Virus record (IMG/VR): IMGVR_UViG_2695420914_000005
Length of the DNA: 64,000 nt
Source: a virus
Lineage: Duplodnaviria > Heunggongvirae > Uroviricota > Caudoviricetes
Strand: one strand, 5' to 3'
Shown here: one piece after another, positions 18,901 through 24,900 of the stretch
Position numbering within the stretch: position 1 is the first letter of the stretch
Layout of the letters: each line of letters begins with the position of its first letter
Program-made: the position numbers

Positions 18901-21900
18901 ATGTTTGAGTTGCCAGATCTGCTTTTTCGCGCAGCTCGTCGGATACAATAGATGCAGCTTCAATGATGGACTTTTTAGAAATGATAATGTTAGCCATGAT
19001 GATTTTTCCTTATGTAAATTTAAAATTTATTGTCGTTAGCGTCTTCGCTTTCGACGAGTTCAATTATCGATATACGAAAAAAGATTGCAAGTGTTTTTTT
19101 AAAATTTTTTGCAGGGATGAAAGTCCTAGAAATAAAAGCGTGATCGTCGAAGGTGTTCCCTAAATAAATAATCGATTCCGGCTTTAGACCTTATATATAT
19201 TTAGGTTATTTGATTTATAGATATAAAGAAGTGATGTGAAAAATAATAACCGGACTTAGCCGGTTATTAACCTTATAGATTTATTGAACAGACTCTACAG
19301 CCTTACGATTGGTGTCAAATAGCACATCAACGAACTGTGCTGATGACTCGCTAGATTCGCAATCCAACATTGCCCGTTCTTCATTTGCCACTTTCTTACA
19401 CAGTTCCACATTCTCGCCTATCGCTTTTCCTGCTTTTACGGCTGCCGAAAATTGATACATGCAAACTGATACATTCTGAGACGTTGAGCACACGTCATTC
19501 ATCAGCGACTGAATGACAGGCTTATAGTCCATTGCATTTGCTGCAACTGAGCAAAGTAAAAATAATGGTGGTAACAATATCGATTTCATAACTCAAAAAG
19601 GCAAAATTCGTTCAACCCAATCGAACAAAACAACTATTTTTCTACCGTTCTCGACACGTAGTGTAACCTGACAAGCATCTGCGCCTGCTGACACCCCCTC
19701 AATTTCACGGCCATCCGCCATGTACACCCTTATAGATTTGTTTGCTTTGTAGGCTTGGTTGCAAATTGCAAAAAAATCGCGGCGTGATGGCCGATTATCG
19801 ACATAATCAGGGTGAACTGTTAGTCGACCTTTGAAATCGTGAGCGATACTGTCAACCACACCTGATTCAATTGTACTAATGCGTTCAAGTGGGAGCCTTA
19901 TACGATTTTCTTTGTCAAAAGGGGCTGGGCAAAGGTCAACTTTGTTACGAGATGGCATGAGGCCATAAACGTACATGCAAAACGCCTGGCCATCTTCGAG
20001 AGTGACCCTTACAGGAATTTGTTCTCTGCGCCAGAACATCAGTAGTTTTTCAACGTTAGTGTAATCTCGCGGCCAGAGTTCAGCTTGGATACCGTAGGTA
20101 ATATCTTTGGTTGTCATGTCATCACAGAGTTGTTGGCAGAATGTCGATGTCACCAGAATTGCTGGTGAACACCCTGAACGCTTTTGTGTCTCCATTCTTC
20201 AGAGTCGTTTCTCGCTCTTGACGAGCGGGGTTTAGAGCACATAAACCTGCACCTTCAAGAGATGCACCCACAATTAATTCTCCGGCATTTAAATGGAAAG
20301 TCGCTTTTTCGCCTGTAGCCAGTTTTGCGACAGTTTCGCCGTTGATGAAAATGGAAGCATCACATCCAGCTCCTACAAAACCTGTGTCTCTCATTACCAC
20401 CAACGTAGCTGGCGCTGCGCTTTGATACTTGAACACTTTGGCCTGCGGTGCTGGTTTGGCGTCATGGATTGATATTGGGCGTGATTGGCACGCGGTAAGC
20501 ATCAACACTGGTAACGTTAGTAGAGGGAGAAGCGAGTATTTCATGATAGTTTTAGAACAGAAAGTGAACAGTATGGGAGACTTCATCTTTGTCTCCCTAA
20601 TTGATAGCGTGATTATTTTAATCTGTTTAATAGCGTTTCGAGATCTTCCTTTGTCATATTAGAGTTCTCATAGATACGCATGATTTTCTCACGAGTCTTA
20701 GCGGAAGCCCCGACAGAAGATATAACCTTGTCAAAGTCGGCCATTGTCAATTGTTCCAGAATGGTATTTATGACTTCAGCCTTAGACATTTTGATATTTT
20801 TTTCTTTTAGTTTCACTTGAAACTTTCCAAGTTTGTCATTGGCCTTATCAGACAATGCTACCTGACAGTAAGTTGTTTTCTTTTCACTCATAACTAATCT
20901 CGTTTCAGAACTCCAAAATCGAATGCTCCATCAATAGGCAATACACCTTCTGCAAAGCCAGGTGTGGTGTCGATGATGTGTTTTCGCTCATAAGAGTGAG
21001 ACAACAGGTATTTGTTGCTAATGTCAATGAAATCAGTGATAAAACACACGTTTGCCTGATTTTTTTTGGCTCGTAAGCCACGACCGACACGCTGTCTCAT
21101 TTCAACTTCTGCTTTCCCACCACCAGCAAGAATGACCGCACCAACGCTTGGCACATCAACACCGACATCCAGAATAGTCGAGCCTATTAAAACATCTATT
21201 TCACCAGACGCTAAACTATTCAGCTTTGCTTGCCTTGTCGTCTGGTTAGATTCCCCATAGATGAAATCAACTTTAAGACCTGACTCCTTCATCATCTCCA
21301 TCAGGATTTGCCCGTGGCGTTTAAGACGAACCAGAGTCATGCAGTTGAGTGAATGTTGCTTATAAAGCAATGCCTCGCGCACTATGGCCTCGTTACGTCC
21401 CAAATTATACACGATCCCCAACTGATAAGCCTTTTGGTAGGCGGTGCTCATACCAACTCTAAAATTGAGGTGTTTGTTGGCAAGTTCGGCCTTGATTCTG
21501 GCCTCGTCTGGCTTGTAGGCAACTTTATGATAAAGGAAGTACGGCTTTGCCAGAATGCCTCGATCAATCAGGTACTTTTCTGTGACTTTAATTTCAATTC
21601 GCCCGGCCACCGCCATCAGGCGCATGTTGGCTTCCGTCGAATCCTTCATGAACGGCGTGGCTGTAAGCGCCAGACGATAGTCTGCGTTCACACATAATCT
21701 GGCAATGTCATAGAAATTAGAGCCTGAAGACTCATGCGCTTCTTCCAGAATAAGCAGAGACACACTTGAAAGGAAGCGTTTCACCAACTCCCGACGTTTG
21801 AGGTGGTAGCTCTTTTTATCTGGTGTTGCATCGCGTGGTGGTTCTTCAAGGAAACTTGCCAGAGTTTGAACTGTAGCGACGTTGATATGTCGTGATACCT

Positions 21901-24900
21901 GGAACTCACCCGAGCCAATGACTCCAACCTTTTGGCCCTTTAACCACGGTTCGCCATTTTCGGCGCGGTAGTCGATGGATCTCTGGAAGTTTTCGGCCAT
22001 TTGAAACATCAGAACAGAGCGGGTTGTTAAAAATAATGTCATTCGACCGATACGTGCAGCTGCTTTGCAGGCAACGTTAGATTTCCCGCCACCAGTAGCG
22101 ATCTGCGCAATCATCATTCCCTCTCGAACCAGTGTTTCCACAGTCTGATCCTGATACGCATAATCAGGATTGTATGGGAATGGGTTAACCGCCGGATTTG
22201 GTTTACCAAGCGCCGGGGCTTTGTCTTTGCGGATATGAACACATTTGATGCCCGCCTTGTTCAAGTTCGCCGCTACAGGCTTGGCAAAGCCAGCAGGGAA
22301 CGAGTTTTTACTCCAGTTGAACATCGTGCTTGTGCCCTTCCAGTCGCCAGTCTCGACTTCGTAGCTCAACATTTGCTGCACCAGTTGCTTTACCTTGTCA
22401 TCTGCGCCAGAAATAAGCGCATTTACTGCGTTAGATACAATCCGAACAGTCATAAACCTCTTTCCTTAGTGCCTTTTGTATGTTATTTGGCTATTATAAT
22501 AAGTAAGTGATTACTTAGTGGATTGTAGCAATAAAATGGATGTAAAAATCACGATTTTGCAGGTTGATGTTGCCAACCTTCGCCCGAATACCTGGAACAC
22601 CAATTCGGTTGGTGCGCAGAATTTTGAAAAACTGAAAGGTTCTATCGAAAAATTGGGCTTTTTTAAGCCAATTTTGGCTCGTGAACTTGAAGATGGATTT
22701 TTTGAAATCCTCGGCGGTGAACATCGCTGGCGTGCTGCTATTGAGCAAGGAATTTCAACGGTTCCGGTGCTTTCTGTGGGCAAAATTAGCGATGTCGTAG
22801 CTAAACAGATGTCACTGGTGGACAACGAGCGATACGGTGAAGACGACCAAATCGCATTGCAACGCTTCATTGAAGAAATTCAGTCAGAACTTGACTATCA
22901 ACTGTCTGAAATCGCTCCGTATGACGACGAAATCTCGATGGTTTTAGCAAAAGAGGCGGCAATCGACCTTGAAGCACTGGAGGCGTTGTCTCGTGGTAGT
23001 GATGAGCCTGTCGATACCGACAAACGAGAGAAAACCGAACGTGTGGGTGCGGAACATCAGACCATGCGCTTCAAAGTAACTTTCGATGCGTCAGATCGTG
23101 TTGCAGAAACCATAAAAAACATCATCAAAGAGCAGGCTATTAACACCGGTAATGAAATGGAGAACGCTGGTGAGGCTCTGGTGTGGCTGGTCGACTACTA
23201 CAAGGAGCGTATGTAATGACCAAAAAGTTTGAAATCGTATATCGCGACCCGGCAGATCTTATTCCCTATGAGATGAATGCCAAAAAGCATGATGAACAGC
23301 AGATCAGAGATCTGGCCGCAGCCATTAAAAAGCGTGGATTTGACCAGCCAATTACGGTCGATAAGAACGACGTAATTATTACTGGCCACGGCCGCCGTGA
23401 GGCTGCAATTTTTGCTGGACTTGAGCGCGTACCGGTTATTGTTCGTGATGATCTGAGTGATGACGAGGTACGTGCAAAGCGCCTTGAAGATAACCGACTT
23501 GCCAGCATTGATTACGATGCAATTAAGCTACAGAAAGAGCTTGAGTCGCTTGTTCTGGACGATATCGAGGTTTTCGGCTTCGAAGAGCGTGAGTTGAATG
23601 TTCTCGTTGGCAGTATGACAGAAGAAATGGACACCGACTCGCTAGTTATCGATCTTGGCGAAGAAACTAAACGACAGAAGGATGAACACACCGAGATCAG
23701 TCGTGAAGTTGCAGCGGAAGAAGTACGTGTTGTCGACGTATTGGGCTTTAAAACGCTTCCTGCTGGCTCTGCCATTGTTGTTGGTGATTTGCTTGCCCAC
23801 ATGGAAGAAATGACGGGAGAAAGCGGGGTAGACGCATTTGTGGCATATGCGGAGAAGATCTCTTCCGGGGAGATGGCTGCATGAGCAAATACATCATCAA
23901 CGTATCGTTTCAGACACGCGTAAATAAAACCACGCGCACGTTGGAAATCGCTGAGTCGTTCGGGCTTGGCCTAGACGAAAAAGAGTGGACGCTTTACGAC
24001 AATCTGGAGCTGGAAGTGAAGCAGGGCGATGTGGTGTACATCACCGGCCAATCCGGTTCCGGCAAATCCGTTGTGCTGCGCGAGTTGCAACGACAGATGA
24101 AGGATGAAGGGCTGTCTGTAGCCTCCATCGATGATTTTACCTTCGATAATGAGGTTAACGTCATCGATCAGTTGGGCAAAACGACCAGTGATGCGCTTGG
24201 GTTGTTATCTATGGCTGGTCTGAACGATGCATATCTGTTTGTTCGCAAGCCTTCTGAAATGTCAGACGGCCAGAAATATCGTCTCAAGATTGCCAAACTG
24301 ATTGAGTCAGGCGCTAAAGTATGGGCTGCTGACGAGTTCGGCGCTGTTCTAGACCGTGTAACCGCTCAGGTTGTGGCGTCTAACCTCCAGCGTGCCGCTC
24401 GAAAGGTTGGTGCGACGGTAATGGTGGCGACGACTCACGAAGACCTGAAGAACGCGCTGCGCCCGGATATGCAGATCACCAAGCACTACAAAGAACGCGT
24501 GAAGGTGGAATATGCCTGATTTGAAGATCGTAGAGCTGAAGCCATCGAAAGAGACTGATAACAACAACGTGGAAGTCATCCGCCTGCTGGAAGAAGCACT
24601 TCAGCACGCCAGAGAAGGAAAAAGCCAGAGCCTGGCGCTGTTGATGATCAACAACGACGGCAGTGTTCTTGATTGCTGGCATAACGGCGGGCGCCCGTAT
24701 GTCATGGTAGGGGCGATGGAGTCTCTTCGCCTGGATTTCATCAATGCCAATATCGAGCGCAGGTGATCGACATGGCAGATATCATCATCAAACGCTACCG
24801 CCCTGAAGAGTTTCCGCGTCATCTGGACTTTCTGGAGCGAATGACTGTCACAAAGGGAACTGTAGAGGACTGGCACGCTCTTAAGTCGCTTCACTACAAA

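Follow-up and report, generated by a model that had tools for sequence, protein, structure and literature searches.

In the 64,000-nucleotide viral sequence IMGVR_UViG_2695420914_000005 (the window, taken at its whole length), which represents an SSU5/pHCM2-type phage-plasmid of E. coli, a leftward row of five genes was found to combine an invariant backbone with exchangeable genes for exported proteins. The backbone is made up of a superfamily 2 (SF2) helicase, a 92-amino-acid (aa) protein (p92), an orphan homologue of the Salmonella flagellin repressor FljA and an intrinsic terminator. Two insertion slots flank the fljA-like gene, and in the window they are occupied by a lipoprotein gene (slot 1) and a gene for a small secreted protein with four Cys residues (slot 2). 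The architecture of the row, the family membership and predicted fold of its products, their conservation and the turnover of the cargo are documented here, whereas the RNA target, the timing of expression and any exclusion phenotype are inferences. The reading preferred here, tentatively and a little short of an even call, is a composite one, in which a fliC-directed FljA-like repressor carries swappable surface cargo on its transcription unit.

An invariant gene array with two cargo slots

ORF reading of the window confirmed the five open reading frames (ORFs) of the row on the minus strand, in agreement with the first-pass annotation, which had described an SF2 helicase, a lipobox lipoprotein, a signal-peptide Cys-containing protein and two further genes in this orientation. 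From 5' to 3' these are the genes for the helicase (20894..22453; 519 aa), p92 (20613..20891), the lipoprotein (20122..20544; 140-aa precursor), the FljA-like protein (19593..20117; 174 aa) and the secreted protein (19281..19589; 102-aa precursor), separated by gaps of 2, 68, 4 and 3 nucleotides (nt). Because each gene could be assigned to a PHROG family and all are under purifying selection, with ratios of nonsynonymous to synonymous substitution (dN/dS) of 0.03-0.15 and no in-frame stops among approximately 20-90 loci per gene, these are, on this evidence, real genes and not chance ORFs.

For comparison, 86 loci anchored on the helicase were fetched from species-representative genomes and IMG/VR, along with annotated plasmids and phages; slot counts were based on 82 complete loci, which are not phylogenetically independent of one another. 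The order helicase, p92, slot 1, FljA-like gene, slot 2, terminator, promoter and p216 gene was invariant in the 82 loci that extended far enough, and it held even where the helicase was only 70% and the FljA-like protein only 35-39% identical to those of the window. In the minimal form of the array both slots are empty. The slot 2 gene of the window lies exactly between the fljA-like stop codon and the terminator, and alignment showed that in loci lacking the secreted-protein gene, a K. pneumoniae plasmid among them, the terminator directly abuts the fljA-like gene.

The contents of the slots, by comparison, turn over. One or more genes for exported proteins, drawn from six unrelated families and arranged in 16 architectures, were found next to the fljA-like gene in 75 of the 82 loci, which is the pattern expected of lysogenic-conversion or exclusion cargo. 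The 102-aa secreted protein was present in 22 of the 82, and seven other loci encode a secreted protein of 99 aa whose Cys residues are spaced almost identically (C-x8-C-x20-C-x11/12-C), so that the two are taken as distantly related. Other occupants include a 259-aa lipoprotein encoded on the opposite strand, signal-peptide proteins of 197 and 118 aa and several cytoplasmic proteins; Pfam searches of these alternative cargo families found no domains. The lipoprotein is absent or replaced in many loci, and among the plasmid records of PLSDB it was found in 421, versus 835 for the FljA homologue. The helicase gene and the fljA-like gene, for their part, were recovered from PLSDB in nearly equal numbers in Klebsiella (346 vs 345), Escherichia (228 vs 229), Enterobacter (92 vs 92) and Yersinia (62 vs 62), and K. 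pneumoniae plasmids show the same synteny as the window. More distantly, Acinetobacter phage-plasmids have kept the ParB/ABC-ATPase genes, the helicase (43% identity) and the small protein downstream of it; in those examined, no FljA homologue and none of the window's cargo were found. The helicase and p92 appear to be an old conserved pair that is also present in the Acinetobacter elements.

Two of the loci (L007 and L009) are contigs from metagenome-assembled genomes labelled "Candidatus Fimivivens" and "Bacillota bacterium", respectively, although they carry enterobacterial SSU5-like sequence with helicases 82% and 93% identical to that of the window, and a "Gemella morbillorum" protein was found among the FljA matches. 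All three cases are probably due to binning or assembly contamination.

The orphan FljA homologue and its candidate RNA targets

Of the two genes that the first-pass annotation had listed as unknowns, both exist, but one of them, read there as an ORF at 19593-20195, is a strong FljA homologue that had been overlooked. Its true start is the ATG at 20117, 4 nt past the lipoprotein stop, which fits the N-termini of the homologues as well as the RefSeq annotation. The protein matches the Pfam family Flag1_repress (PF03614) over profile positions 1-170 of 170 (E 2.5e-84; 281.7 bits against a cut-off of 24) and belongs to PHROG 1444 (1.9e-100). Compared to a genuine Salmonella FljA (P0084), it is 36% identical over 171 aa, essentially end to end (E 1e-37). 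In its source records P0084 bears the name "phase 1 flagellin gene repressor FljA [Salmonella enterica]", and it comes from the canonical hin-fljB-fljA locus (L097), which carries a resolvase, a flagellin and FljA in that order. The window protein and genuine FljA have in common the N-terminal motif DI[ST]YG..AE.WPRDY and the motifs PS.RD[FY]F.IC and FDWV.RI.

The family is tiny. An exhaustive HMMER search of 1.84 billion representative proteins returned 26 PF03614 clusters, and the non-Salmonella members that were inspected have a phage-plasmid context; a second, word-based homologue search, seeded with a chromosomal homologue (P0074), returned only the same phage-plasmid clade. The predicted model of the window protein consists of two tandem Sm/Hfq-like domains. 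BLAST comparison of the two halves of the protein found no significant internal repeat, so that the tandem-domain assignment rests on the predicted structure, and a fold search of BFVD with the model found only single-domain Sm-like phage proteins. The gene is evidently maintained by selection, with a dN/dS of 0.11 and zero pseudogenes in 87 loci; when the comparison was narrowed to copies from Klebsiella, the sequence types proved to be either saturated or identical.

Two groups of homologues differ from this picture in sequence or location. A divergent subfamily (L094, L086-L089 and L096; P0083), with 33-46% identity to the window protein, has the motif GYKPSGRDFF and lacks WPRDY; it is found in K. 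pneumoniae phage-plasmids with 70-72% identical helicases, and its specificity may have changed. On a 5.2-Mb E. coli chromosome (L090; CP125919.1, 385158-397682), a 52%-identical homologue (P0074, the seed of the word-based search) lies among small phage-plasmid-like ORFs, including one for a 92-aa protein. No flagellin gene was found at this locus, which may represent an integrated or decayed SSU5-like element and not a flagellin cassette.

In the composite reading, the helicase with its 92-aa companion, the orphan FljA homologue and the invariant terminator form a backbone common to all enterobacterial relatives examined. The two slots beside the fljA-like gene accommodate an outer-membrane-type lipoprotein and a small periplasmic four-Cys protein here, and other lipoproteins, other secreted proteins or nothing in relatives. 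The FljA-like protein would act as a tandem Sm-fold RNA-binding protein that binds the 5' leader of host fliC mRNA, as do Salmonella FljA and E. coli FlkB, and would thereby block flagellin synthesis. The exported cargo, riding on the fljA-like transcription unit by tight or translational coupling, would alter the envelope, so that FljA-like protein and cargo together could constitute a cell-surface remodelling module for lysogenic conversion or exclusion.

Host fliC mRNA is the likeliest candidate for the target, since members of the FljA family repress fliC in Salmonella and, as FlkB, in E. coli (PMC3378880), since the motifs described above are shared with genuine FljA, and since the neighbourhood is one of surface genes. 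Neither the 64-kb window nor the sequence flanking the helicase of the fetched loci, which extended up to 8 kb, yielded a flagellin gene. As no replacement flagellin would therefore be supplied, the predicted outcome is loss of flagellin and not a switch of type.

Several observations weigh against a fliC-directed role. The FljA-like gene is kept intact and one-to-one with the helicase in plasmids of non-flagellated hosts, namely Klebsiella (345 vs 346), Y. pestis with pMT1 (62 vs 62) and Shigella (6 vs 7), and SSU5-type elements are common in non-motile S. sonnei. The identity to genuine FljA is only 36%, and a search of the literature found no experiment or paper on the function of this FljA homologue. 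S. Typhi bearing pHCM2 is still typed H:d, which argues against strong constitutive silencing of fliC. Furthermore, the promoters of the row were not located, the hairpins found past p92 are compatible with either one operon or two units, and the dependence among the loci noted above limits the weight of the slot counts.

Some of these same observations suit an alternative that we regard as possible but doubtful, namely that the FljA-like protein acts post-transcriptionally either on RNAs of the phage-plasmid itself, such as those of the replication/partition genes, the neighbouring p216 unit or the lysis-lysogeny decision, or on host RNAs other than fliC; Salmonella FljA would then have been domesticated from this family and redirected to fliC. 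A core syntenic gene with such a low dN/dS and no pseudogenes, retained alongside the helicase in plasmids of Klebsiella, Y. pestis and Shigella and in the same synteny in K. pneumoniae, is what such a role would lead one to expect, as is a very small family whose inspected non-Salmonella members reside on phage-plasmids and whose fold is that of general RNA binders. On the other hand, the analysis turned up no candidate operator and no part of the window similar to the fliC leader. The gene is missing from the related Acinetobacter phage-plasmids, so that the basic life cycle does not need it, the D-I-[ST]-Y-G..AE.WPRDY motif is shared with genuine FljA, and a neighbourhood full of cell-surface cargo fits a host-directed protein. 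The window had also been considered as a self-target or decoy resembling the 5' leader of E. coli K-12 fliC; a scan gave chance matches only (best E 0.28), and this candidate was rejected.

The two interpretations can be joined, although as a whole the joint version seems rather unlikely. FljA-type proteins would then be primarily tandem-Sm RNA regulators of phage-plasmids, with the Salmonella repressor as a domesticated member; the orphan would silence flagellin or another RNA, and the slots would serve as a landing pad for envelope cargo. Silencing of flagellin without replacement would amount to lysogenic conversion to a non-flagellated state, and in Klebsiella and Y. pestis an alternative RNA would be targeted.

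Envelope cargo, helicase and transcription of the row

The first-pass annotation was right that two envelope-targeted proteins are encoded in the row, one recognized by a lipobox conserved in homologues and the other by a signal peptide read by eye. The N-terminus of the lipoprotein (MKYSLLPLLTLPVLMLTA/C) ends in a canonical lipobox, L-T-A-C, with Gln at +2; the segment MKYSLLPLLTLPVLM-LTA-C agrees with the pattern [LVI][ASTVI][GAS]C, and the Cys is invariant in 14 sequences. Among 13 homologues the lipobox is kept as L-[ST]-[AG]-C, the +2 residue is Gln or Ser, and two Cys are conserved in the mature part. As the +2 residue is Gln and not Asp, the +2 rule predicts sorting to the outer membrane. 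The protein belongs to PHROG 890, "lipoprotein" (9e-52), and has a weak, sub-threshold match to DUF2846 in Pfam. RefSeq places its start at 20586, and the N-termini of homologues favour 20544. Its AlphaFold2 model is of low confidence (pLDDT 58), and a Foldseek search of the PDB with this model found nothing meaningful. The N-terminus of the secreted protein (MKSILLPPLFLLCSVAANA/MDYKP) shows a basic n-region, a hydrophobic core and an A-x-A site (ANA/M), followed by a mature part with four Cys; this protein belongs to PHROG 9536 (2.4e-54). Sequence searches of the PDB with p92, the lipoprotein, the secreted protein and the product of the p216 gene were empty or returned noise.

Phage-borne envelope proteins are often exclusion-related, examples being T5 Llp and the Cor proteins of phi80 and N15. 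The first-pass annotation had assigned the lipoprotein and the secreted protein to superinfection exclusion or receptor masking and coupled them to the helicase in a supposed early operon, a view that now appears quite improbable as a whole. Its first half has merit: the two proteins are clearly directed to the envelope, the slots show a preference for exported proteins, in the manner of exclusion cargo, and the genes are tightly packed ahead of one common terminator. An exclusion role is plausible by analogy, but when the lipoprotein, the FljA-like protein and the secreted protein were searched against PADLOC, Pfam and the PDB (by sequence and fold), none matched a family with a described role in exclusion or defence. 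The tie to the helicase fares worse. Both envelope genes are dispensable and replaceable, whereas the helicase is invariant, and the helicase-p92 pair occurs without them, as it does in the Acinetobacter elements. Since the slot contents vary and the backbone pair does not, the link of the envelope genes to the helicase is most simply explained as positional, an accident of insertion into a conserved array, and a functional tie is unlikely. It is hardly credible that the row is a plain replication/recombination operon in which the FljA-like and exported proteins are evolutionary passengers with no host-directed role, for although the row adjoins ParB-like/ABC-ATPase genes and includes a strongly conserved helicase, all of its small genes are under purifying selection, the FljA homologue is present in every enterobacterial relative examined, and the signal sequences and lipobox are conserved.

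The helicase itself is an XPB/UvsW-like SF2 protein with two RecA-like domains, and its translation contains the motifs GGGKS (Walker A) and EEAH (motif II). It matched the Pfam domains DEAD (1.5e-14), ResIII (1.8e-14) and Helicase_C (4.3e-13) above their cut-offs and PHROG 16, "DNA helicase" (2.3e-93). Its best relatives of solved structure are XPBII (7e-13) and T4 UvsW (2.4e-8), mainly by way of the second RecA-like domain; the match to the UvsW structure 2oca covers residues 230-485 only and is weaker than that to XPB. The homologue in phage Cyrano is annotated as UvsW-type. The dN/dS of the helicase gene is 0.026, and a Shine-Dalgarno sequence (AAGGAAAGAGG) precedes its ATG. Assignment to PbeA or a dnd-restriction protein in PADLOC was rejected, as this similarity is one of the generic SF2 core and falls far below family level; the NCBIfam matches to XPB, UvrB and RecG were read in the same way, all scores being far under the family cut-offs.

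The p92 gene, whose product belongs to PHROG 1466 (8e-46), starts 2 nt past the helicase stop, directly follows the helicase in every locus compared and has a dN/dS of 0.074. The search of the PDB with its sequence, being empty, also gave no match to UvsW.1. It is possible, on weak grounds, that p92 is a ribbon-helix-helix protein. By eye, both p92 and the 97-aa protein that comes after the helicase in an Acinetobacter locus (L095, 5692-5985) resemble this fold, with a short strand and two helices; the pairwise similarity between the two is not significant (E 0.12).

The first-pass annotation had read the row as a single operon. The genes are co-oriented and co-terminated, which indicates that they are probably co-transcribed at least in part. 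For the lipoprotein, FljA-like and secreted-protein genes, the close spacing and the one terminator they share point to a common transcript. Hairpins past p92 leave room for either one operon or two units. In the window, a hairpin of the form GGGAGAC-N9-GTCTCCC (20575..20597, minus strand) lies just past the p92 stop, and the alternative lipoprotein ATG at 20586 falls into its loop, with one arm as its apparent Shine-Dalgarno sequence. Relatives have unrelated hairpins at the same place, some followed by T-runs. The hairpin in the window may thus attenuate or terminate transcription where helicase-p92 gives way to the genes that follow. A weak promoter-like site was seen at 20641-20612, and a TTGCTG-19-TATAAT motif precedes the fljA-like gene in a minimal element (L054). 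Given these hairpins and promoter-like motifs, helicase-p92 and the fljA-like gene with its cargo may each be regulated on their own, with read-through between them. Presumably the leftward unit has its promoter in the short intergenic region that separates the helicase from the divergent first ParB-like gene (22454..22535, with the ParB start taken from RefSeq), where no minus-strand consensus promoter was called.

At the other end, the unit is closed by a predicted intrinsic terminator (19244..19269, minus strand), a GC-containing hairpin with a 10-bp stem and a U-tract past the stop codon of the last gene (-15.1 kcal/mol, z -3.3). Its core, ATAACCGGCTA.G.CCGGTTAT followed by a T-run, is conserved in seven aligned loci, including the K. 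pneumoniae plasmid, with only two loop positions varying. A search for repeats that could be recombination sites around the cargo found solely a weak, degenerate direct duplicate of the terminator flank (19178-19198 and 19260-19280; CCGG.T..A.ACCTTATA.AT), which could be a scar or a recombination site for the exchange of slot 2 cargo. In the spacer of approximately 300 bp between the terminator and the p216 gene (19000-19240), the blocks AAATATATAAGG, ATTTATTTAGG.AACACC.TCGA and TTTATTTCTA.GACTTT and a CTTG..-N17-GATAAT promoter-like pair are invariant in distant relatives. Since the conservation of this spacer exceeds that of the neighbouring coding genes, regulatory sites are suggested.

The phage-plasmid setting and known relatives

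The first-pass annotation had spoken of a prophage, but the element is not an integrated one. Nucleotide and synteny relatedness to SSU5, pHCM2 and pMT1, together with its plasmid location, place it in the SSU5 supergroup of phage-plasmids, as defined in PMC7969092. Over a 4.8-kb stretch (17800-22600), the window shows 100% identity to several circular plasmids of approximately 110 kb from E. coli, such as pIso00225_02, and this stretch was matched in 250 of 5426 complete E. coli genomes, with all 270 of 270 matches borne on plasmids; the window is therefore a plasmid-prophage and not an integrated prophage. Its identity amounts to 99% with "Escherichia phage CMS-2020a", 94% with phage Cyrano and approximately 79% with SSU5, a Salmonella phage. 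From approximately 26.7 kb onward, the genes for terminase, portal and tail are oriented rightward, and the interval studied is one of few leftward blocks.

Divergent to the helicase, a rightward block (22518-25662) encodes two ParB/Srx-like proteins, an ABC-type ATPase and a 299-aa protein. A ParB/Srx-ABC ATPase block is also kept with the 43%-identical helicase and the small protein in Acinetobacter phage-plasmids (L095), and the combination looks like an old functional module. An 82-aa protein on the minus strand (18095-18343) belongs to PHROG 6145, whose label, "MIT family metal ion transporter", was inherited from the "CorA" annotation of SSU5_119. This label looks spurious, since the protein is short and highly charged and has no hydrophobic segment. 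Rfam and tRNA scans of the entire window gave no matches.

Existing annotation of SSU5 already lists genes of this row as "putative helicase", "putative lipoprotein" and "putative repressor of phase 1 flagellin", and to this extent the gene content reported by the first-pass annotation is largely ordinary. In the literature searched, four features appear to be undescribed: the orphan FljA homologue as a core syntenic gene across the enterobacterial SSU5 supergroup, including elements of non-flagellated hosts; the tandem Sm/Hfq-like fold predicted for the FljA family; the small size of this family and its mostly phage-plasmid-borne distribution; and the position of the fljA-like gene between a pair of cargo slots with a preference for exported proteins.

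Phage-plasmids of the SSU5/pHCM2/pMT1 type occur commonly among clinical Enterobacteriaceae, including S. Typhi H58, S. sonnei, E. coli ST131 and K. pneumoniae, and are also found in Y. pestis. If the FljA homologue does silence flagellin, carriage of such an element would alter motility, H-antigen expression, stimulation of TLR5 and sensitivity to flagellotropic phages while leaving the chromosome unchanged. If it has another RNA target, phages would be seen to encode a new class of regulators with an Sm fold, and the origin of Salmonella FljA would appear in a different light. In either case, the two cargo slots offer a defined place to seek new envelope-acting exclusion or conversion factors.

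Among the closest known systems is SSU5, in which SSU5_124 to SSU5_121 (helicase, hypothetical protein, lipoprotein and "putative repressor of phase 1 flagellin") are orthologous to the window genes and in the same order. Across SSU5, pHCM2 of S. Typhi and pMT1 of Y. pestis, the helicase is 93%, the lipoprotein 77-80% and the FljA-like protein 81-83% identical to that of the window; SSU5 differs in lacking the 102-aa secreted protein that the window has between the fljA-like gene and the terminator. The helicase core domains match those of XPB/Rad25 and T4 UvsW, but the similarity is low and lies mostly in the C-terminal RecA-like domain, so that the window helicase is not a demonstrable orthologue of either. 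Like the window lipoprotein, T5 Llp and phi80/N15 Cor are small phage-borne outer-membrane-type lipoproteins that serve as dispensable cargo, although Pfam, PADLOC, PDB and Foldseek searches detected no sequence or fold similarity between them and the lipoprotein of the window. Compared to Hfq and other Sm-like proteins, the FljA-like protein has two Sm-like domains fused in one chain, according to the predicted model, and no significant sequence similarity to Hfq was found. Finally, FljA of Salmonella enterica and FlkB of E. coli H3/H47 belong with the window protein to the same family, PF03614, over their whole length. Their genes lie downstream of an alternative flagellin in switchable or excisable cassettes (fljBA-hin and flkAB), whereas the window gene has no flagellin, invertase or excisable islet beside it and, unlike fljA and flkB, is located 3' of a helicase gene on a phage-plasmid and is also carried by elements of non-flagellated hosts.

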